Source: Chloroflexota bacterium (GTDB taxonomy: Bacteria; Chloroflexota; UBA11872; VXOZ01). From it: 64,000 nt of DNA. How positions within the stretch are numbered: position 1 is the first letter of the stretch; every line of letters begins with the position of its first letter. Where the stretch lies: positions 224,001 through 288,000 of the forward strand of contig OY760183.1 in NCBI GenBank assembly GCA_963663275.1. Reading direction: 5' to 3'. The notes beneath the pieces are model-generated. The model was not told the origin of the DNA. It saw only the letters and a program-made list of their open reading frames with translations, and made no database searches. The position numbers and the translations under genes are program-made. Below, one piece after another: positions 5,088 to 64,000 of this stretch.

Positions 5088-6680
5088 ATGAGCGAGCGGC
5101 CGAATTTCCTCATCATCCTCACCGACCAGATGCGCGGCGACACCATGAGGTGCGCCTGGCGCGACTGGCGAGATGACACGCCGCTGCAAACGCCCAATCT
5201 CGATCGGCTGGCGGCCGGCGGCGCGCTGCTTGAACGCGCTTATGTCAATAATCCTCTCTGCATGCCCTCCCGCTCCACGCTGCTCACCGGCCTCACCCCG
5301 CGCGGGCACAACGTGCGCACCAACGGCATCGACCTGGACCCGGCCTTTCCCACGGTCACCGGCACATTGGCCGATGTCGGCTACCGCACCCACAGCATCG
5401 GCAAGATCCACGTGCGCACGGGCGGCGAGCCCATCGGGGTTGACCCGAAAACGCTCGAGCCGCTGGACTTTCCCGAAACCCGCTGGATGTGGCGCAACCG
5501 CAAGGTCTCGTCGCTGCCCACGCCTTACTACGGGTTCGAAAGCACGGAACTGACCATCGGCCACGGGCCAGGGAACTTCGACAATCACTACCTGTGGCTG
5601 GAGCGCGAGCACCCGGACGTGCTGCCCTTCTGGAACCGCCAGGCGTCCACTCCCGCGGCCAGCGGCGCGGAGCAGTCCTACCGCATCAACGTGCCGCCAG
5701 AGTACCACTACAACACCTGGATCGCCGACCGCTCGATTGCCTATATGAAAGAGGCGGCCGCCCAGCCGCAGCCTTTCATGCTCTGGGCCTCGTTCCCCGA
5801 TCCCCATCATCCGTTTGCCGCGCCGGAGCCGTGGTTTTCCCTGTACGACCGCGATGCGATCCCGCCGGCGACGCGGCGCGAAAACGAACTGGACGACCTG
5901 CCGCCGCACATGCGCCTGAGGTACGAGACCGACCAGTGGACGTCCGGCCGGCGCATGGCCACCAGGATGCCGGATGAACAGATGCGCGAAATTACGGCCA
6001 TCACCTTTGGCATGGTTTCATTCATCGACGAGCAGGTGGGGCGCATACTGGACTCGCTCGACGAACTGGGCCTGGCCGCAAACACCGTTGTCGTCTTTAC
6101 CGCCGACCACGGCGATCTGCTCGGCGACCACTGGCTATTGAACAAAGGGCCCTACCACTTCGACGGCATGCTGAACATCCCCTCGATCTGGCGCTGGCCG
6201 GCGCGCTTCCCGGCGGGCCAGGTCTCCCAGAGCCTGGTCTCGCACCTGGACATCCCGCCGACGCTGCTCGACCTGGCGGGTGTTGAAGCGCCGGAGTACG
6301 GGCCGCCGTTCATGAAAGGCATACCGCAGCCGGAAGCGGAACGGCAGATGGCGGCCTGGCCGGGACGCGCGCTCACGCCGCTGCTCGCCGGCGCGGCGGA
6401 GTCCGTGCAGGACGCCATCATCATCGAGAACGACGAGGACTACATCGGGCTGCGCCTGCGCACGCTGGTCACAGACACCCACCAACTCACGGTCTACGTG
6501 GGCGACGACGGCGAGCAGGAGTACGGCGAACTCTTCGACACCCGGAATGACCCCGGCCAACTCCACAATCTCTGGAGCGATCCCGCCGCGCAAGGCCTGA
6601 AACGCGAACTCAAGGCGCGCCTGATGGCGGAACTCGTCCGCACCGACAACCGGCTGCCTAGAAGGCAAAGCCATGCGTGA
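5088..6680 (+). CDS. Sulfatase (formylglycine-dependent, Cys type)
   Basis: RPNFLIILTDQ, CMPSRSTLLTG signature, GKIH, DPHHP, TADHGD; GAGGAG RBS. Confidence 0.95.
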   Translation: MSERPNFLIILTDQMRGDTMRCAWRDWRDDTPLQTPNLDRLAAGGALLERAYVNNPLCMPSRSTLLTGLTPRGHNVRTNGIDLDPAFPTVTGTLADVGYRTHSIGKIHVRTGGEPIGVDPKTLEPLDFPETRWMWRNRKVSSLPTPYYGFESTELTIGHGPGNFDNHYLWLEREHPDVLPFWNRQASTPAASGAEQSYRINVPPEYHYNTWIADRSIAYMKEAAAQPQPFMLWASFPDPHHPFAAPEPWFSLYDRDAIPPATRRENELDDLPPHMRLRYETDQWTSGRRMATRMPDEQMREITAITFGMVSFIDEQVGRILDSLDELGLAANTVVVFTADHGDLLGDHWLLNKGPYHFDGMLNIPSIWRWPARFPAGQVSQSLVSHLDIPPTLLDLAGVEAPEYGPPFMKGIPQPEAERQMAAWPGRALTPLLAGAAESVQDAIIIENDEDYIGLRLRTLVTDTHQLTVYVGDDGEQEYGELFDTRNDPGQLHNLWSDPAAQGLKRELKARLMAELVRTDNRLPRRQSHA

Positions 6681-6761
6681 CTCACGCAGTCGGCGCCTTG
6701 CGGGGGATTGCGCGAGTCCGGCGTCATGCGTTACGTTGAAAGGAGACAGGAGACACTGGCC

Positions 6762-6947
6762 ATGGAGAACTACGAGTTCATCCGTTCCTTAGCCGTTGCC
6801 GCCGTGGCAATCGCGGCACTGATATGGCGTTTCGATACACGCCTGGCCGGTGTCGAAACGCGCATTGCCGACTTGTCCCACCGTGTATCCCGCATCGAGG
6901 GGCTACTCGAGAGATACGTTCTCCAGGCTGGCAAGAAGCAAGAGTGA
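6762..6947 (+). CDS. Small membrane-anchored coiled-coil hypothetical protein (61 aa)
   Basis: AGGAG RBS; hydrophobic N-terminal helix followed by a heptad stretch ending RVSRIEGLL. Confidence 0.6.
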   Translation: MENYEFIRSLAVAAVAIAALIWRFDTRLAGVETRIADLSHRVSRIEGLLERYVLQAGKKQE

Positions 6948-7009
6948 CCCGGCTCCTACAGGGACGGGTCACTTGCCGATAAACCCCTCAGGTATCCCCA
7001 CCGTCTCTC

Positions 7010-7270
7010 ATGAGAAATTTCGTGGCCGTGCTTTTCCCAGAGCGCCTGGCCGTCCTTGTCAAGCGGGCGGTGATCGCGCTGCGCTGCACGTACCCCGAAG
7101 AGAAAGAGACGGCGTACTCGCTGGAATTGAGAATGACCGGCAGAGTGCGCTACGCCGTGCGCCGCGACTTGATCCTGGCCAACGGGTTGAGAACGGTGCT
7201 GTACCAACTGGAGGAATCGACCGAACCCCAGACGTTTAGCAAGGGCGCACAACCGCCGGCGATCCCTTAA
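7010..7270 (+). CDS. Hypothetical protein or gene fragment
   Basis: 86-aa ORF filling the gap; no RBS or motif recognised. Confidence 0.25.
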   Translation: MRNFVAVLFPERLAVLVKRAVIALRCTYPEEKETAYSLELRMTGRVRYAVRRDLILANGLRTVLYQLEESTEPQTFSKGAQPPAIP

Positions 7271-7335
7271 CAAGACAATGACGACTCCCACTTTCAGGGG
7301 AATCGCCATTGTCCGCCGCCGTTGTCCGGTCAATT

Positions 7336-8619
7336 CTATACCCGGTAATACTCCGCCACTTTGGCGAACATCGTCGCCATGTCTTCCACGTCCTCGGCGG
7401 TGTGCTTATCGGTCCAGCCCCAGCGGATGGTGGTATCCACGTGTTCCTTGCCCTGGGGGCACATGGCCGCGCTGTACTCGATGTCCTTGGCAAAAGCGTT
7501 CATGGGGTGGTCCCACGGCCAGCCGGACTTGCCGGCCACGTGGGCCTTCTTCTGCATGAACGTATGGCTGTCGGGCACCAGGTAGTAGGGCGCGGGGCCC
7601 GCGCCGGCACTCAGGCCCTCGGCCTTCAGCGCGTCGGCAAAGTCCCAGATGGAGCAGCGGAACTGGTCCAGGTCCAGGCGGACGTGGTAGAGCCAGTGGA
7701 TGTGGTCGCTGCCGGGGGGTGTATACGGCGGGGTCAGGCCGTCGATCTCAGCGATCAGGGAGTTCAAGTGAGCCGCGCCCTGCCGCCGCCGCTCGTTCTG
7801 CTCCTCCAGCACGCCAAGCTCCGCCAGCCCCAGCGCCGACTCGAACTGGCCGAAGCGCAGGTTCAGGCCGAACGTATCGTGCTTGCGGCCGTAGTTGGGA
7901 TACGACACCGCGCCGCGCGAGAGCGCAAATTGCCGCACGCCGTCGGCAATGTCCTTGTTGTCCGTGGTGATGGCGCCGCCGTGGTCGGCGCTCAGGTGCT
8001 TCTCCGCGTCGAACGAGAACGCGCCCACGTCGCCCAGCGAGCCGGCCTTGCCGCGCACGTTCTGCCCCGTGTAATTCGCCAGCGGCGCCTGGCAGACGTC
8101 CTCCACCAGCGTGATGCCCCTGTCCGCCGCCAGCGCCACGATCTCTTCCATGGGGCAGAGCAGGCCGTAGAAATGCACCGCCACGATGGCCGCCGTGCGC
8201 GGCGAGAGCACTTTCTCGATCGTCTCGGCGGTCACGTTGCCCGTGCGCACGTCCACGTCGGGGAAGATCGGAATCGCCCCCTGCGCCACGATGCCGGCGA
8301 TGGTGCCGAAGTCCGTGATGGGGCTGACGACGATTTCGTCGCCCGGTCCGGCGCCCAAGCCGGCGTACAGCGCGTGCAGCGCCGCCGTGCAGTTGGCGAT
8401 GGCGACGCAGTACTTGGTGCCCGTCGCCGCGGCAAACGCCTCCTCGAAACGGCCGATCATGTTGCTGGCGACGCCGCCGTCCAGCACCTCGCGCACGTTG
8501 TCGTAGGCGCTCTCCGGCACGTAGCGGGGAAAGACTTCCTGCAATGGATTGTCCGCGCTCCGCACCGGCGCGCCTCCATCGATAGCCAAACTGACGTCCG
8601 CGGGACTCTTGATTGCCAT
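7336..8619 (-). CDS. DegT/DnrJ/EryC1/StrS family PLP-dependent aminotransferase
   Basis: NCTAALH, GPGDEIVV, VEDVCQA, FSFDAEKHL (PLP lysine); AAAGGAG RBS before MAIKS. Confidence 0.92.
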   Translation of the reverse strand: MAIKSPADVSLAIDGGAPVRSADNPLQEVFPRYVPESAYDNVREVLDGGVASNMIGRFEEAFAAATGTKYCVAIANCTAALHALYAGLGAGPGDEIVVSPITDFGTIAGIVAQGAIPIFPDVDVRTGNVTAETIEKVLSPRTAAIVAVHFYGLLCPMEEIVALAADRGITLVEDVCQAPLANYTGQNVRGKAGSLGDVGAFSFDAEKHLSADHGGAITTDNKDIADGVRQFALSRGAVSYPNYGRKHDTFGLNLRFGQFESALGLAELGVLEEQNERRRQGAAHLNSLIAEIDGLTPPYTPPGSDHIHWLYHVRLDLDQFRCSIWDFADALKAEGLSAGAGPAPYYLVPDSHTFMQKKAHVAGKSGWPWDHPMNAFAKDIEYSAAMCPQGKEHVDTTIRWGWTDKHTAEDVEDMATMFAKVAEYYRV

Positions 8620-59080: not shown

Positions 59081-61558
59081 CTACGCCGGGCCTTCTTGCC
59101 GCTCGCGGCGGCGGAAAGTTTCCTCGATCTCCGCGTCGAGTTCCTGCGCCCAATTCCGCACCCGGGAGCGCAGGCGCATGTTCTGGTACGCGCCCCAGAC
59201 CGTCATCGCCGGCGGCACCACCAGCACGGACACCACCAGCGAGTAGAGGATCGTAATCGCCGCCGTGAAGGCGAACTGCTGGAACATGATCTGGGTGGAG
59301 ACCAGCAGCGCGCCGATGCCCAGGGCCGTGGTCAGCGCCGAACCCAGCAGCGCCGAGCCGGTAGTGCGCAGCGTCCGGATGGCCGCCTGCTCCGGGTCGC
59401 GCCGGCGGGCGTACTCCTCGCGGTAGCGATGGATGATGTGGATGGTGTAGTCCACCCCGATGCCGATCGAGAGCGCCGCGATGATCGACGTGATCAGCGA
59501 ATAGGGAATGCCCAGCAGCGCCATCGTGCCGATCACCGAGACGAGCGCGATGACGATCGGCGCCACCGCGATCAGCGCCAGCGCCGGTTGGCGCGCCGTC
59601 ACCCAGAAGAAGAACGCCAGCACGCTGAGGGCGGCCGCGATGATGGTTATCACCGCCTCCGTCTGCCCGTCGGTAATCGCGTCGGTAATCGTAATCGTGA
59701 TGATGCTGTCCGACGTTGCCGTAATGTCAGTGTCTTCGCCGCGCCAGCGCGTCTCTATCTCCTCCTGGATTGCCTTCGTTTGCGCGGCATTGCCGGTATA
59801 TGCCGGAAACTGGAGCAGTATTGAGTCTCTGCCATTGGGATCGTTGGAGAGAAGATACGCCAAGGTGGGGTCTTGCGCCTGGAGCCTGACGAGCGCCTCC
59901 TGCATCAGCCCGGTATCGAGTTGCACGCCGGCGGAGGCTTCCCCGAAGAGCGCGGCCAGTTCCGGGTCGTACTTGTCGCCGGGCTCCCCGCTGTCGTGGA
60001 TCCAGTCGCGCAGGAGCGATTCGTACGAGGCGATGATGGGGCTTGCCGCCGCGCTCGGGCGCAGCCCTTCATCCTCGAAGGCGGTCATGAGGTCCCGCAG
60101 GTTCAGCAGCGTGCGCGTCTCCGCGGCCTCGGCCGTTACAAGCACGTTGACCATCTCCGTGGAGCCGCCAAACGCCGCGTCCAGCGTATCCATGTCCGCC
60201 ATGGTGGGCCCGCCTCTGGGCACCACGTCGCGGAGTTGGAACTCCGAGCCGACTCCCCTGGCCGCAATCCCAAGTCCGACGACAATCACGAACACGACGA
60301 TGAGATAGGGCGCGGGCCTGCGCGTGACTCCCCGCCCCAGCATCTCCGCCAGCCGCTCGACGCCGGGCAGCGCGTGCGCCACCAAACGAGGCTGTTTCAA
60401 CGTGCCGCGCGCTTCGCGCCGCCGGTCGATGAGCGTCCGGCCGGCCGGCACCAGGGTCAACATCACGATGAGGGTCATGCCCACGCCCAAGCCGGCGATC
60501 ACGCCGAAATCGCCCACGATTTCGATGGGAGAGAACAGGCTCACCAGGAAACTGACAATCGTGGTGACGCCGGCCAGCGTCAGCGGCACGGTGACGTTGT
60601 TCAGCCCCACGCGCGCGGCCTCGGCCACCGGCTCGCCCAGGTGGCGTTGCTCGCGGTAGTGCGAGACGATCTGAATCGCGTAGTCCACCGTGAGACTCAT
60701 CATGACGACGGGCACCACCGCCGTCAGCGCGTTGGGCGGGCCGATCAGGCCCAAACCGTACGGGCCGAGCCAGCCCTCCACGCCGATGATCCAGACGAGG
60801 GCCAGGGTCAACCCTCCCAGCGTGAGCAGCAAATCGGTGAACGTGCGCATGAAGAGCAGCGTAAGCCCCGCGATGAGCAGGAGCGTCAGCCCGGACAAGG
60901 GCAGCCTCCCTTCCCGCGTGGCCTGCCGGAAGGCGTCGTCGACCACCACGGTCGAGAGGCTGCTGGCGCGCAGCGGGCCTTCGCTGGCGAGCGCGGCCTC
61001 GTAGATCCGGCGTTCGGCGTCCACCACGCGCTCGTCACCCGTTCTGCGCAGGCGGATGCTGGCAACCGCGACCGGCGTGTCGTCCGCGTCCACGCCGGTC
61101 AGCGCGGCGAGCGCCGGCTGTATCTCCGGGCGGGCGCCGGCCGCGTCGATCTGCTCCTGGGTGACCGCCTCGAAACTCTGCACGCGCAGCAGCGCCTTGA
61201 TCAGCAGCGAGGGCGCGACCACCGGGTCCACCGGCGCCAGAATTCCCCCCACCGTTGGATCGGTGACGACCTCGCCAATCAGGGCGTCCATCTGCGCCAA
61301 TCCCGCCGGAGTGAGCCCGTTGCCCCGGAAGATGAGCGTTACGACGGTGGCGTTGCCGGTTTCACCGAAGCGCTCTTCGATCTCTGCGAGCGCCATGGCG
61401 ACGGCGCTCTCCTCGGGCAGAGACGCAATTGAAGGCGGCAGCGGCGCCCGCCGCGCCGCCCCCGCGGCGAGAAAGATCGTCACGTTCAAGAGCATGAACA
61501 GCGTGAGCCACGGACGCTCGACGACCAGCCGGCTCAACTCGCCGAGAACGTTGCTCAT
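59081..61558 (-). CDS. MMPL/RND superfamily transporter
   Basis: Two 1+5 TM repeats with extracytoplasmic loops; SLTVDYAIQ and GIGVDYTIH motifs. Confidence 0.9.
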   Translation of the reverse strand: MSNVLGELSRLVVERPWLTLFMLLNVTIFLAAGAARRAPLPPSIASLPEESAVAMALAEIEERFGETGNATVVTLIFRGNGLTPAGLAQMDALIGEVVTDPTVGGILAPVDPVVAPSLLIKALLRVQSFEAVTQEQIDAAGARPEIQPALAALTGVDADDTPVAVASIRLRRTGDERVVDAERRIYEAALASEGPLRASSLSTVVVDDAFRQATREGRLPLSGLTLLLIAGLTLLFMRTFTDLLLTLGGLTLALVWIIGVEGWLGPYGLGLIGPPNALTAVVPVVMMSLTVDYAIQIVSHYREQRHLGEPVAEAARVGLNNVTVPLTLAGVTTIVSFLVSLFSPIEIVGDFGVIAGLGVGMTLIVMLTLVPAGRTLIDRRREARGTLKQPRLVAHALPGVERLAEMLGRGVTRRPAPYLIVVFVIVVGLGIAARGVGSEFQLRDVVPRGGPTMADMDTLDAAFGGSTEMVNVLVTAEAAETRTLLNLRDLMTAFEDEGLRPSAAASPIIASYESLLRDWIHDSGEPGDKYDPELAALFGEASAGVQLDTGLMQEALVRLQAQDPTLAYLLSNDPNGRDSILLQFPAYTGNAAQTKAIQEEIETRWRGEDTDITATSDSIITITITDAITDGQTEAVITIIAAALSVLAFFFWVTARQPALALIAVAPIVIALVSVIGTMALLGIPYSLITSIIAALSIGIGVDYTIHIIHRYREEYARRRDPEQAAIRTLRTTGSALLGSALTTALGIGALLVSTQIMFQQFAFTAAITILYSLVVSVLVVPPAMTVWGAYQNMRLRSRVRNWAQELDAEIEETFRRRERQEGPA

Positions 61559-61816
61559 GTCCCCACTTCCTGTATGCGGACGCTCCCACACGCGGCGTGG
61601 GCAACCTCGCGGCCGCGGCGGGCGCGCCGCCCAGGCCCACAGTCGTCTCGAAGGTCCGTTCGTGCCGTCCTCTCACCACTTGAGCACTTAGCACTATACA
61701 CGAAAGCGAGCCGAGCGGCATACCCGACTTGACGTGTGCGCCCACAAGCTCGCCCTCCGGCCGGAGAAGCAACGGCACAACCCGGCCGCTAGGCAGAATG
61801 AACTCCCTCTCCCTGG

Positions 61817-61897
61817 GGCGCCCAGGTGCGGGCAATAGGCCTCGGCCACGCAGACGCGCCCGTTCTCATCACAGTACGCAATGATATTCTCACCCAG
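61817..61897 (-). pseudogene. Fragment of a Rieske [2Fe-2S] oxygenase
   Basis: LGENIIAYCDENGRVCVAEAYCPHLGA contains the first CxH ligand motif; no second CxxH; ends abruptly at a repeat arm (aactccctctccctgg). Confidence 0.7.
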
Positions 61898-61968: not shown

Positions 61969-62193
61969 AATGAACTGCCTGTACGCCCCGGGAACGCGCG
62001 CTCAAAGGTGAGTCCGTGCTCCGTTGTCGGTTAGCCTCTCCTTTTTCCTGCCCAGTGGTCGAGTCTGCCCGTAGCGCGCCATGCTCCGGATGGTGTGCCG
62101 GCAGGTCGATCCGCGCGCGGATACTGTGGCTGGGAGGTTCTCATTCACTCTTCCACCAGTCAAGGTTATCACGAGTCCTTGGAGGAAAGACGT

Positions 62194-64000
62194 ATGTCTC
62201 TCGAAGTAGACCGGATCGCGACTCACGAGTTAACGCTGCCGCAAGAACTCGTCCTGATGCTGCTCAATGAGGAAACCGGCTACTTTCGCCAAGTGGTCGG
62301 CTGGGACTTGAACTGCGCAATTGTGGGCGCAATACTCGCTGAGCTATCGCTCCGTTCCCGCATTGACACGGACATGGAATCCCTGAAGCTTCTCGATCCG
62401 ACGGAGACCGGCAACCCGGTCTTAGATACCGTACTCGAGAAGATCGTCAATGAACCCGTTGAACATAATGCCACCTACTGGATCGAGCGGCTTGTCTTTC
62501 GCGCGCCCCAGATCATCGACCGGATTTTGGACCGCTTGGTTGAACTGAAGGTGCTTGACTACCACGACGGCGAATTCTGGACGCTGTCTCGCACTGCGTG
62601 GCAGACGGAAGTGCACAGTGACGTTGGCGAAGGCACCGCGGTTGAGTTCGTCAAGTCGCGCGTGAGCAGGGTGATCTTCAACAATGAGATTCCCGCACCC
62701 AGAGATGTCATCATGGTCTGTCTTCTCAATACGTGCGATGTCCTGCGCTTCATCTTTCACCTCGAAGAAGAGACCGAGGAGCGTGTCCGGCTGATCAGCA
62801 GGATGAACCTGATTGGCCGCTCCGTGGCCGAGGGGGTCGCCGACAACTTCGTCGGGCCGCTGCTCCAGCGGTCCGCGCTTTCCAAACCAATCCCAACAGT
62901 AAAGCTGCAAGACCTGCTGCTCAATCCACACCTGCGCACCGGCAACATTCCCGCGATCTTTGCGGAACTTCAAAAGAAGTACGGCCCAGTGTTTACCATA
63001 CGCCCGCCTCTCTCAGAGCCTCTGTATTTTCTGGCCGGGCCCCGGGTCAACCAGTGGGTGCAACGGAACGGCCGCCATTTCCTGAGAGCCAAGGACTATT
63101 TCACCGACTTCGAGAAAGTCTTCGGCGCATCCGGCTTGATACCGGCCGCGGACGGCGCCGATCACTTCCGGCTGCGCAAGGCCATGTCGCCAGGGTATTC
63201 ACGCGAGAGGCTGGAAGGGCAACTGGACGAAGTGTACCGCAATGCCCGGACGTACATGGCGGACTGGAAGGTTGGCGACTCCTACGCTGCCAATCGCCTC
63301 TGCCGGCGGATGATAAACGCGCAACTTTCGCCGTTCACGGTGAACATTGACTCGCAAGACATCGTCGACGATCTCATGGCGTACAAGGAACGCGCGCTCA
63401 GCACGCACGTCGCGCGGGTCCTGCCCAAATTCATGCTGCATACCCCCGGCATGAAACGCCGGGCGAAAGTCGTCAACGAGGTGCTGGATCGCGTCCTGAG
63501 CGAGCATACGCCCGCCCAGCGCGCCGGCAGTCCGCGGGATCATGCCGACGACCTGCTGAGCCTGCACGCAAGCGACCCGCAATTCCTGCCGGAATCTAAT
63601 ATGGGGTTTATGCTATCGGCCCCGCTGCTTGCCAGCATGTACCTGGGCGATGCGCTGAGCTTCGCGGTCTACGCCATGGCCGCGCAGCCTGAACTCTACG
63701 ATCGGATCAAAGTCGAAGCGGATGCGCTCTTTGGCAACGGCGATCCGGCGGGCGCCGACTTCACGCTGGAGGCAATCGACGTCACGCACCGCTTCCTCAT
63801 GGAATGCATGCGCATGTACCCGGTCGTGCCCGTGTCTATTCGCAACGTCATGAATGCGTGCGTGGTGGAAGGCTTCGAATTGCCGGTCGGGGCGCGGCTC
63901 CACATTGCCACGACCGCCACGCATTATTTGGACGATATCTTCCCTGATCCCTTCACGTTCGATATCGACCGCTATCAGGCGCCGCGCAATGAGCATCGCA
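62194..64000 (+). CDS. GPP34/GOLPH3-like domain fused to cytochrome P450 (3'-truncated by the window edge)
   Basis: GGAGG RBS, ATG 62194, open for 602 codons. N-terminus LTLPQELVLMLLNEETG..GAILAELSLRSRI..DPTETGNPVLD. P450 part KYGPVF, DGADHFRLRK, ECMRMYP (ExxR), VVEGFELPVG, FPDPFTFDIDRY. Confidence 0.88.
   Translation, partial: MSLEVDRIATHELTLPQELVLMLLNEETGYFRQVVGWDLNCAIVGAILAELSLRSRIDTDMESLKLLDPTETGNPVLDTVLEKIVNEPVEHNATYWIERLVFRAPQIIDRILDRLVELKVLDYHDGEFWTLSRTAWQTEVHSDVGEGTAVEFVKSRVSRVIFNNEIPAPRDVIMVCLLNTCDVLRFIFHLEEETEERVRLISRMNLIGRSVAEGVADNFVGPLLQRSALSKPIPTVKLQDLLLNPHLRTGNIPAIFAELQKKYGPVFTIRPPLSEPLYFLAGPRVNQWVQRNGRHFLRAKDYFTDFEKVFGASGLIPAADGADHFRLRKAMSPGYSRERLEGQLDEVYRNARTYMADWKVGDSYAANRLCRRMINAQLSPFTVNIDSQDIVDDLMAYKERALSTHVARVLPKFMLHTPGMKRRAKVVNEVLDRVLSEHTPAQRAGSPRDHADDLLSLHASDPQFLPESNMGFMLSAPLLASMYLGDALSFAVYAMAAQPELYDRIKVEADALFGNGDPAGADFTLEAIDVTHRFLMECMRMYPVVPVSIRNVMNACVVEGFELPVGARLHIATTATHYLDDIFPDPFTFDIDRYQAPRNEHR

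Follow-up and report, generated by a model that had tools for sequence, protein, structure and literature searches.

Here we describe a gene which joins a GPP34 domain to a cytochrome P450 and lies at the 3' end (62194..64000, plus strand) of a 64,000-nucleotide stretch of DNA from a Chloroflexota bacterium (assembly GCA_963663275.1, contig OY760183.1, positions 224,001 to 288,000), hereafter called the window. The gene is a genuine member of the GPP34_L family already published from sponge symbionts, and in related loci it is accompanied by genes for sterol modification and by lipid transporters of the RND type. This neighbourhood favours sterol tailoring linked with RND transport and speaks against the published proposal that these proteins are secreted effectors. 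We consider it rather probable that the fusion is a P450 which works in the cytoplasm and tailors sterols of the host, with GPP34 serving as an adaptor module.

The fusion gene and its domains

The open reading frame (62095..63999, plus strand, in the program-made list) leaves the window at its 3' end, and an in-frame ATG at 62194, which homologues share as start methionine in the alignment, opens 602 codons within it; a Shine-Dalgarno-like GGAGG (62181..62185, plus strand) is read 8 nt 5' of this ATG. The window corresponds to G000:C1:224001-288000 of a genome consisting of a single contig (3.53 Mb, 99.6% complete), in which the frame was followed to its stop at G000:C1:288227, 227 nt past the window end, giving a protein of 677 aa. 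The single long frame reported in a preliminary description of the window was thus real, and both domains named there were recognized by Pfam. On the full protein, GPP34 (PF05719) covers aa 15-213, far above the cut-off (E 3.5e-28, 99.5 bits vs 29.1, profile positions 1-196 of 201), and p450 (PF00067) covers aa 247-652 (E 1.6e-32, 113.3 bits vs a cut-off of 22.8). The part inside the window gave, by itself, nearly the same result, with GPP34 at aa 15-213 (E 2.7e-28, 99.8 bits vs 29.1) and PF00067 at aa 247-598 (E 6.2e-24). On the plus strand of the window, these assignments place the GPP34 domain at 62236..62832, an inter-domain linker (aa 214-246) at 62833..62931 and the P450 domain at 62932..64000, where it is present up to aa 602. 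The predicted model of the full-length protein has a mean confidence (predicted local distance difference test, pLDDT) of 91.9 and a predicted TM-score (pTM) of 0.89, with lower confidence around aa 221-230 of the linker, and suggests that the two domains are packed as one rigid two-domain unit.

The P450 hallmarks were all located: YGPVF at aa 263-267, HFRLRK at 324-329, the ExxR of the K-helix (ECMR, with E537 and R540; 63802..63813, plus strand) at 537-540 and DIDRY at 590-594. The heme loop YAPYGLGTHTCLG (aa 606-618), expected beyond the window, indeed begins 9 nt after its end and was recovered from the genome with Cys616 in the segment YGLGTHTCLG, the counterpart of the FxxGxxxCxG loop of P450s; because this cysteine loop is present, the P450 domain of the fusion very likely binds heme. 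Cys616, E537, R540 and R593 show no variation among the 67 sequences of an alignment, called A3, which combines 8 hand-picked close relatives with 59 of 150 listed representatives and excludes fragments. NCBIfam models returned no match above their curated cut-offs for the fusion, nor for the Rieske protein, flavoprotein, transporter, methyltransferase, ERG4/24, FA_hydroxylase protein, DUF7802 protein and short GPP34 discussed below.

Genomic neighbourhood of related loci

The neighbourhood was analysed in the best 80 of at least 590 confirmed stretches (597 pattern matches), each with 10-kb flanks. Frames of at least 90 aa were clustered by blastp at 30% identity or more over at least 60% of the longer protein; matches covering less than 40% of the query were dropped from the per-locus table, and those below 50% from the counts of CYP51, of squalene epoxidase joined to oxidosqualene cyclase (SE-OSC) and of ERG4/24. 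Clusters c28 and c30 were taken as shadow frames and left uncounted, the representative of c28 overlapping AcrB on the opposite strand.

Within 10 kb of the fusion, a KshA-like Rieske oxygenase is found in 68 of the 80 loci, a methyltransferase of about 350 aa matching the sterol C-24 methyltransferases (SMT; Pfam Sterol_MT_C, E 7e-14) in 53, an MMPL transporter in 46, a pair formed by an MFS transporter and an LppX/LprAFG lipoprotein in 12 and an ERG4/ERG24 sterol reductase (E 2.7e-68) in 10. An amine-oxidase-like flavoprotein, present in 48 loci, is 77-93% identical to the copy of our genome, which exceeds the conservation of the fusion itself. AcrB occurs in 19 loci, with MFP in 18 and OEP in 13, and never in the same locus as MMPL, so that an RND transporter is encoded in 65 of the 80. 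At least one partner family is present in 79 loci, the exception being a contig of 2.9 kb, and the arrangement flavoprotein (+), Rieske (-), fusion (+), SMT (-), MMPL (-), found in 13 loci, is the most frequent. Since all 19 loci with AcrB have labels outside Chloroflexota and 44 of the 46 loci with MMPL belong to Chloroflexota, the transporter changes with the envelope type while the fusion stays.

A full sterol operon is seen in a metagenome-assembled genome (MAG) of Binatia, locus L033, where a Rieske/KshA_C protein, the fusion, ERG24, CYP51 (E 2e-104 to the Methylococcus enzyme) and an SE-OSC fusion follow one another on one strand, and then two SMT genes; a FA_hydroxylase protein and an OEP-MFP-AcrB set are encoded nearby. 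CYP51 and SE-OSC lie within 10 kb of the fusion in 5 of the 80 loci, the other 75 carrying tailoring and transport genes only. Other features of these loci were recorded. Squalene epoxidase and oxidosqualene cyclase form one frame of 1143-1269 aa at L033:14134-17940 (+) and L057:14422-17850 (-), with the Pfam domains SE, FAD_binding_3 and SQHop_cyclase_N/C, which looks like a fusion of the first two steps of sterol synthesis; in L033 the start of this frame overlaps the CYP51 gene and its true position is uncertain. The sterol cluster of L033 also holds a DUF7802 gene (6114-7262, -) and the FA_hydroxylase gene (7277-8095, -), the latter ERG3/ERG25-like. In Dehalococcoidia, the LppX/LprAFG-type lipoprotein and MFS pair lies upstream of the fusion (L068:7617-9889, +; homologues in the 12 loci counted above) and may constitute a second lipid-handling route.

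By simple arithmetic, chance alone would place the single SMT of a genome of 3.5 Mb inside a given 20-kb span at about 0.6% of positions. Among 31 related genomes, a fusion match of at least 600 residues was found in 13, 9 of which encode SMT, vs 1 of the 18 others; in the genus, SMT is present in 7 of 11 genomes with a full-length fusion vs none of the 6 with fragments or none, and it abuts the fusion in G006, G008 and G009. These genomes are kin and the counts are given without a statistical test. Sterol_MT_C had no match in 14 control genomes, and Brown et al. 2023 reported that SMT homologues from sponge-symbiont metagenomes alkylate in vitro the side chain of desmosterol and 24-methylenecholesterol.

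As far as our literature searches reach, that is, within main texts, the sterol neighbourhood of the fusion is not in print. GPP34 is absent from the main texts of Brown et al. 2023 and Kelly et al. 2022; the term "P450" is absent from the main text of the former and appears in that of the latter only within a cited title. The searches returned no paper linking GPP34-P450 to sterol genes, their scope being main texts, so that supplements may already show the gene.

The GPP34 domain and the PI4P pocket

Searched against the PDB, a profile of 21 N-terminal domains matched Vps74 (E 1.6e-8) and GOLPH3 (E 3.2e-8), which superseded a single-sequence search giving a weak match to Vps74 only (E 0.0035). 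For the predicted model of the domain (pLDDT 79.9), all 8 PDB matches at E<=1e-3 were GOLPH3 or Vps74 chains, with TM-scores of 0.55-0.66, and a beta-hairpin is predicted at aa 121-131 of the fusion, in keeping with the otherwise all-helical GOLPH3/Vps74 fold, from which such a hairpin protrudes. Because the matches of the model and the hits of the profile are GOLPH3 and Vps74, the membership of the domain in the GPP34 family is sound.

The pocket for phosphatidylinositol 4-phosphate (PI4P) was defined through mutagenesis by Wood et al. 2009 as W81, R90, R171 and R174 in GOLPH3 and W88, R97, K178 and R181 in Vps74. In a profile alignment to Vps74, the equivalent residues of our domain are P/V35, V44, E/P105 and I108, none of the four being kept; across the family W88 is replaced by P or V, R97 by V, I or A, K178 by E or P and R181 by I or V. 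The domain is also net acidic, with 21 K+R for 37 D+E, and neither a transmembrane helix (by hydropathy scan) nor an N-terminal hydrophobic leader (by eye) was found in the fusion protein. Judged from these residues, the GPP34 domain of the fusion is probably not a PI4P reader. The preliminary description had pictured a membrane-targeted P450 acting on lipids: the lipid substrate is plausible in view of the sterol-gene neighbourhood, but targeting through PI4P in the manner of GOLPH3 is not supported, given the loss of the pocket and the acidic character of the domain.

Because the partners of GPP34, in fusions or as neighbours (P450, Rieske, ABC ATPase), can be viewed as soluble modules working at membranes on lipids, an adaptor role most likely suits GPP34 better than PI4P reading, the role itself being proposed by analogy. 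The alternative of GPP34 as a redox partner, an analogy raised by Ferreira et al., was rejected: aa 1-246 matched no cofactor-binding Pfam family, and by sequence profile and fold the N-terminal domain matched GOLPH3/Vps74 only. The genome further encodes one short, stand-alone GPP34 of 219 aa (L092:1480-2139, +, at 1.67 Mb of G000; Pfam E 1e-45), with no P450 near it, unlike the pattern reported for Actinobacteriota.

The P450 domain and its I-helix

Among solved structures, the closest relative is CYP184A1, both by sequence (E 5e-24) and by Foldseek (7wzm, E 8e-18, TM-score 0.82 on the target). CYP51s, a plant taxadiene hydroxylase and P450 BM3 come next, and all of these relatives show a generic likeness of about 20% identity. 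Foldseek TM-scores on P450 targets ranged from 0.79 to 0.82, and the search with the full model returned generic P450s only and discriminated no substrate class. The possibility that the fusion is the CYP51 of the clusters described by Kelly et al. was rejected, as a true CYP51 lies beside it in L033 and the fusion matches CYP51s with an E value of 5e-17, vs 2e-104 for that enzyme.

The I-helix, at aa 475-490 (63616..63663, plus strand), reads SAPLLASMYLGDALSF and lacks AGx(D/E)T, as the preliminary description had pointed out. In the motif of the window copy, ASM-YLGD, the acid column is deleted and Tyr483 occupies the column of the conserved Thr; the form A-S-(V/M)-Y-L-G-D is found in 81 of 81 close relatives from the 80 loci. 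The 48 fusions of A3 (8 from the close subfamily and 40 cluster representatives) divide into 26 with the canonical acid-alcohol pair, 4 with His-Thr, 15 with the one-residue deletion of the acid column (Tyr in the Thr column in 13, Asn in 2) and 3 in another state, and the canonical I-helix is present in 18 of the 19 stand-alone relatives. Because most other fusions and the stand-alone relatives are canonical, the missing pair is, on this alignment, a derived and conserved one-residue deletion within one branch of the family. The chemistry could be a substrate-assisted activation of oxygen, the use of peroxide or a rearrangement, and the atypical I-helix makes the fusion a candidate for new P450 chemistry.

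Copies and neighbours in the same genome

Besides the window gene, the genome contains two further copies of the fusion, one in tandem roughly 0.7 kb downstream (73% aa identity) and a third at 2.08 Mb (61%); each of the three adjoins an RND transporter of 836-854 aa. That of the window gene (59081..61591, minus strand, 836 aa) is of the MMPL/HAE3 type with a sterol-sensing domain (Pfam MMPL 4.2e-44, Sterol-sensing 1.6e-15, Patched 5.9e-13). It scores 205 bits with the HAE3 and 95 bits with the HpnN-like NCBIfam models, both below cut-offs, and it is the family with homologues in 46 of the 80 loci. Between the transporter and the fusion, tblastn with the paralogue L003:3575-4639 revealed a 27-aa remnant of a KshA-like Rieske oxygenase gene (61817..61897, minus strand; 24/27 identical, E 6e-13). 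The tandem copy has a Rieske remnant of its own upstream of it, just past the window end (L004:231-598), with residues 21-162 spread over three frames. Beside the third copy the Rieske oxygenase is intact (L003:3575-4642; Pfam Rieske and KshA_C; best PDB match KshA, 1e-20), and an amine-oxidase-like flavoprotein adjoins this copy as well. The flavoprotein L005:15965-17320 (-), whose best PDB match is LkcE (3e-29), is 77-93% identical across phyla and represents the most conserved gene of the module.

No squalene or oxidosqualene cyclase match was obtained in this genome, and cyclase is absent from 17 of the 17 genomes of the genus searched. The only SMT lies at 2.55 Mb, about 2.26 Mb from the window gene, and the four P450s are the three fusions and one CYP184/CYP97-like enzyme which is not a CYP51. 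Because the genome is without cyclase and CYP51, the organism has no sterol synthesis of its own and any sterol substrate must come from the host. Five of the 17 congeners (G003, G004, G005, G007 and G013) retain fragments only, as frames of 241-414 aa, one of them with a stop; they keep the short GPP34 and are without SMT. Because of these five congeners, the fusion is dispensable in some lineages.

Prior description and spread of the family

The architecture, presented in the preliminary description as one without a known characterised example, proved to have been published under the name GPP34_L by Ferreira et al. 2025 (Microbiome 13:4), in whose data 656 of 663 long-form GPP34 proteins consist of GPP34 and P450. 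According to the main text of that paper, GPP34_L was restricted to sponge symbionts in a survey of 780 symbiont and 85 free-living genomes and spans many phyla, genomes carry 1 to 6 GPP34 genes, short and long forms are both expressed in Aplysina, fusions of GPP34 with a Rieske domain and with an ABC ATPase exist as well, and a P450 is often found no more than 5 genes away from a short GPP34 gene. The authors proposed that GPP34 is a secreted PI4P-binding effector which blocks phagosome maturation; the main text studies no protein, covers only the short form in its analysis of flanks and contains "sterol", "steroid" and "MMPL" 0 times each, the count being of the main text without supplements. 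That no member had been characterised biochemically, as stated in the preliminary description, agrees with our literature searches, which turned up no such paper.

In our own searches, 2676 of 8000 scored proteins matched at E<=1e-3, and the best 120 listed all combine PF05719 and PF00067, with at least 65% identity and about 675 aa. Of 597 pattern matches among species-representative genomes, at least 590 code for a relative, and representatives at 50% identity gave 366 matches at E<=1e-30, many of them full-length fusions at 27-54% identity. The relatives found are all from MAGs, some with bin names as in sponge studies (SB066x sponge bins). A single study supplied four runs with the label "sponge metagenome" which contain 0.27-0.45 of the gene's sampled words, the best holder having a coded label; no RNA run is among the listed holders, which is uninformative on expression. 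A FastTree tree built from 86 sequences unites the window gene and its tandem copy with the orthologues of the genus (support 99) and places the third copy basally on a long branch. For several phyla the sequences do not stay together in this tree, and sequences from different phyla are only short distances apart, which is compatible with the horizontal spread already reported. A second GPP34-P450 subfamily, 27% identical to the first, adjoins the AcrB gene in the same clusters (L026:7773-9794, +; L013:4987-7008, +); its heme loop is FGIGPHSCLG, and a strict AGxxT was not found in the printed stretch, which ends in ...QALD.

Proposed function and alternative explanations

From the observations above we infer the substrate, a sterol, as well as the role of GPP34 as an adaptor and the chemistry. 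The fusion would be a heme-thiolate P450 of the cytoplasm, belonging to a module that spreads horizontally among sponge-associated bacteria and would comprise the KshA-like Rieske oxygenase, the sterol C-24 methyltransferase, the amine-oxidase-like flavoprotein and a lipid transporter of the RND class; this transporter is of the MMPL/sterol-sensing kind in Chloroflexota and consists of AcrB+MFP+OEP in diderm phyla. The substrate would be a sterol taken from the host, and GPP34 would most likely tether the soluble oxygenase to the membrane, to the transporter or to partner machinery, in the way that GOLPH3 attaches to the tails of membrane enzymes. Because the I-helix acid is deleted and Tyr483 replaces Thr, the activation of oxygen would be atypical, perhaps substrate-assisted or peroxide-driven.

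Several points weigh against this proposal. The only intact neighbour of the window copy is the transporter, its Rieske gene being a 27-aa remnant and SMT lying about 2.26 Mb away; therefore the sterol context rests on orthologous loci, and these 80 represent the top of the similarity ranking and are not independent, since 49 belong to Chloroflexota and many come from close kin. Annotations are at the family level only: with the SdmA model, whose cut-off is 600 bits, the Rieske protein reaches 28.9 bits, the transporter is nearer to the hopanoid transporter HpnN (95 bits) than to the sterol transporter BstA (33 bits), the methyltransferase also matches models of cyclopropane-fatty-acid synthase, and the nearest P450 of known structure contained oleic acid in the crystal. 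The pocket residues were mapped by profile alignment and not on a solved or superposed structure. With no cyclase in 17 of 17 genus genomes, uptake of host sterol must be assumed. Finally, the restriction to sponge and coral symbionts and the expression in sponge tissue described by Ferreira et al. 2025 fit an effector equally well.

The explanation of Ferreira et al. 2025 is that GPP34 is secreted, attaches to host PI4P on the phagosome and stops the latter from maturing, the P450 assisting this host-directed action. It agrees with the confinement of the family to symbionts in the published survey, with the expression in Aplysina, with the four sponge metagenome runs and with a domain which is best known from eukaryotes and whose fold matches only GOLPH3/Vps74. 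The domain has, however, kept none of the four PI4P-pocket residues and is acidic, signal peptide and transmembrane segment were not found in the fusion protein, and a heme enzyme dependent on a reductase would be an odd cargo. The conserved neighbours of the 80 loci include no secretion-system gene but inner-membrane lipid transporters and sterol enzymes, and in 5 of 17 congeners the gene has decayed to fragments while the short GPP34 is kept. We therefore regard the effector explanation as decidedly unlikely.

Another explanation keeps the enzyme in lipid metabolism and changes its substrate: the fusion would oxidize a lipid other than a sterol, for instance a polyene, a fatty acid or one of the bacterium's own membrane terpenoids resembling hopanoids or carotenoids, and the "sterol" neighbours would be recruited paralogues. 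The oleic-acid complex of CYP184A1, the best PDB relatives of the flavoprotein (LkcE and the "putative aminooxidase" 2b9w), the matches of the methyltransferase to CMAS/cyclopropane synthase models, the HpnN-like transporter and a genus without cyclase all point this way. But Sterol_MT_C is specific, with its 0 matches in 14 control genomes, and the homologues of Brown et al. 2023 alkylate sterol side chains; the fusion lies inside ERG24-CYP51-SE/OSC operons in 5 of the 80 loci, and the absence of cyclase excludes the bacterium's own hopanoids too, which leaves a non-sterol substrate, in our estimate, unlikely. It is far more improbable that the window gene is a non-catalytic or decaying copy, redundant among three paralogues or being lost: neither tandem copy has kept an intact Rieske partner and 5 of 17 congeners retain fragments only, yet the frame is intact across 677 codons with a good Shine-Dalgarno sequence, all catalytic motifs are retained and full-length orthologues from congeneric species are 79-82% identical to it.

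Beyond the sterol-tailoring P450 itself, a wider proposal would be that GPP34 is a bacterial lipid-pathway adaptor, that the fusion is an unrecognised sterol-tailoring enzyme whose oxygen chemistry is non-canonical, with a Tyr where the acid-alcohol pair would be, that sponge symbionts without sterol synthesis of their own employ it alongside the Rieske oxygenase, the flavoprotein, SMT and the RND transporter to import, remodel and re-export host sterols, and that the effector explanation is wrong; taken as a whole, we hold this proposal to be possible, if rather doubtful. If it were true, part of the unusual sponge sterols, including side-chain-alkylated biomarkers, would be symbiont-made. 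The fusion is among the most widespread gene families marking sponge symbionts, and a role in sterol handling would redirect the sole published functional hypothesis for the family, add a missing enzyme and a possible recruitment domain to bacterial sterol pathways, and bear on the makers of the unusual sponge sterols used as the oldest animal biomarkers.

Comparison with known systems

With GOLPH3 and Vps74 the fusion shares the Pfam family, the fold and the beta-hairpin, and it may share the logic of docking soluble proteins onto membrane proteins; it differs from them in that the PI4P pocket is replaced at four of four positions, the long N-terminal region is lacking and the domain is joined to an enzyme. 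CYP184A1 of Streptomyces avermitilis (7wzl/7wzm) is the best solved relative of the P450 part by sequence and fold, but with 22-23% identity only, a canonical I-helix as far as the printed alignment shows, no GPP34 and a fatty-acid ligand. The CYP51s are among the better PDB sequence matches (E 5e-17) and share the sterol context, whereas the I-helix of the fusion differs and, in L033, the true CYP51 is encoded two genes downstream of it. The CYP74 allene oxide synthase, the CYP152 peroxygenases and P450eryF are P450s without the I-helix acid-alcohol pair, and have thus lost the proton-relay pair as the fusion has. They are, however, absent from the best 60 of 125 sequence matches and from Foldseek ranks 1-50, and the heme loop of the fusion, set against this group, is of canonical length.

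The nearest description is that of GPP34_L by Ferreira et al. 2025, with the identical order of GPP34 followed by P450, about 675 aa and a distribution over many phyla of sponge-associated MAGs; it differs in its functional proposal, a secreted PI4P effector, and makes no link to sterols in the main text. Finally, the clusters of steroid genes (CSGs) described by Kelly et al. 2022 and the clusters with SMT described by Brown et al. 2023, as presented in their main texts, contain the same genes (ERG24, CYP51, cyclase, SMT and Rieske) that stand beside the fusion in related loci, and they show the same phyla and the same signs of horizontal spread as the fusion loci.

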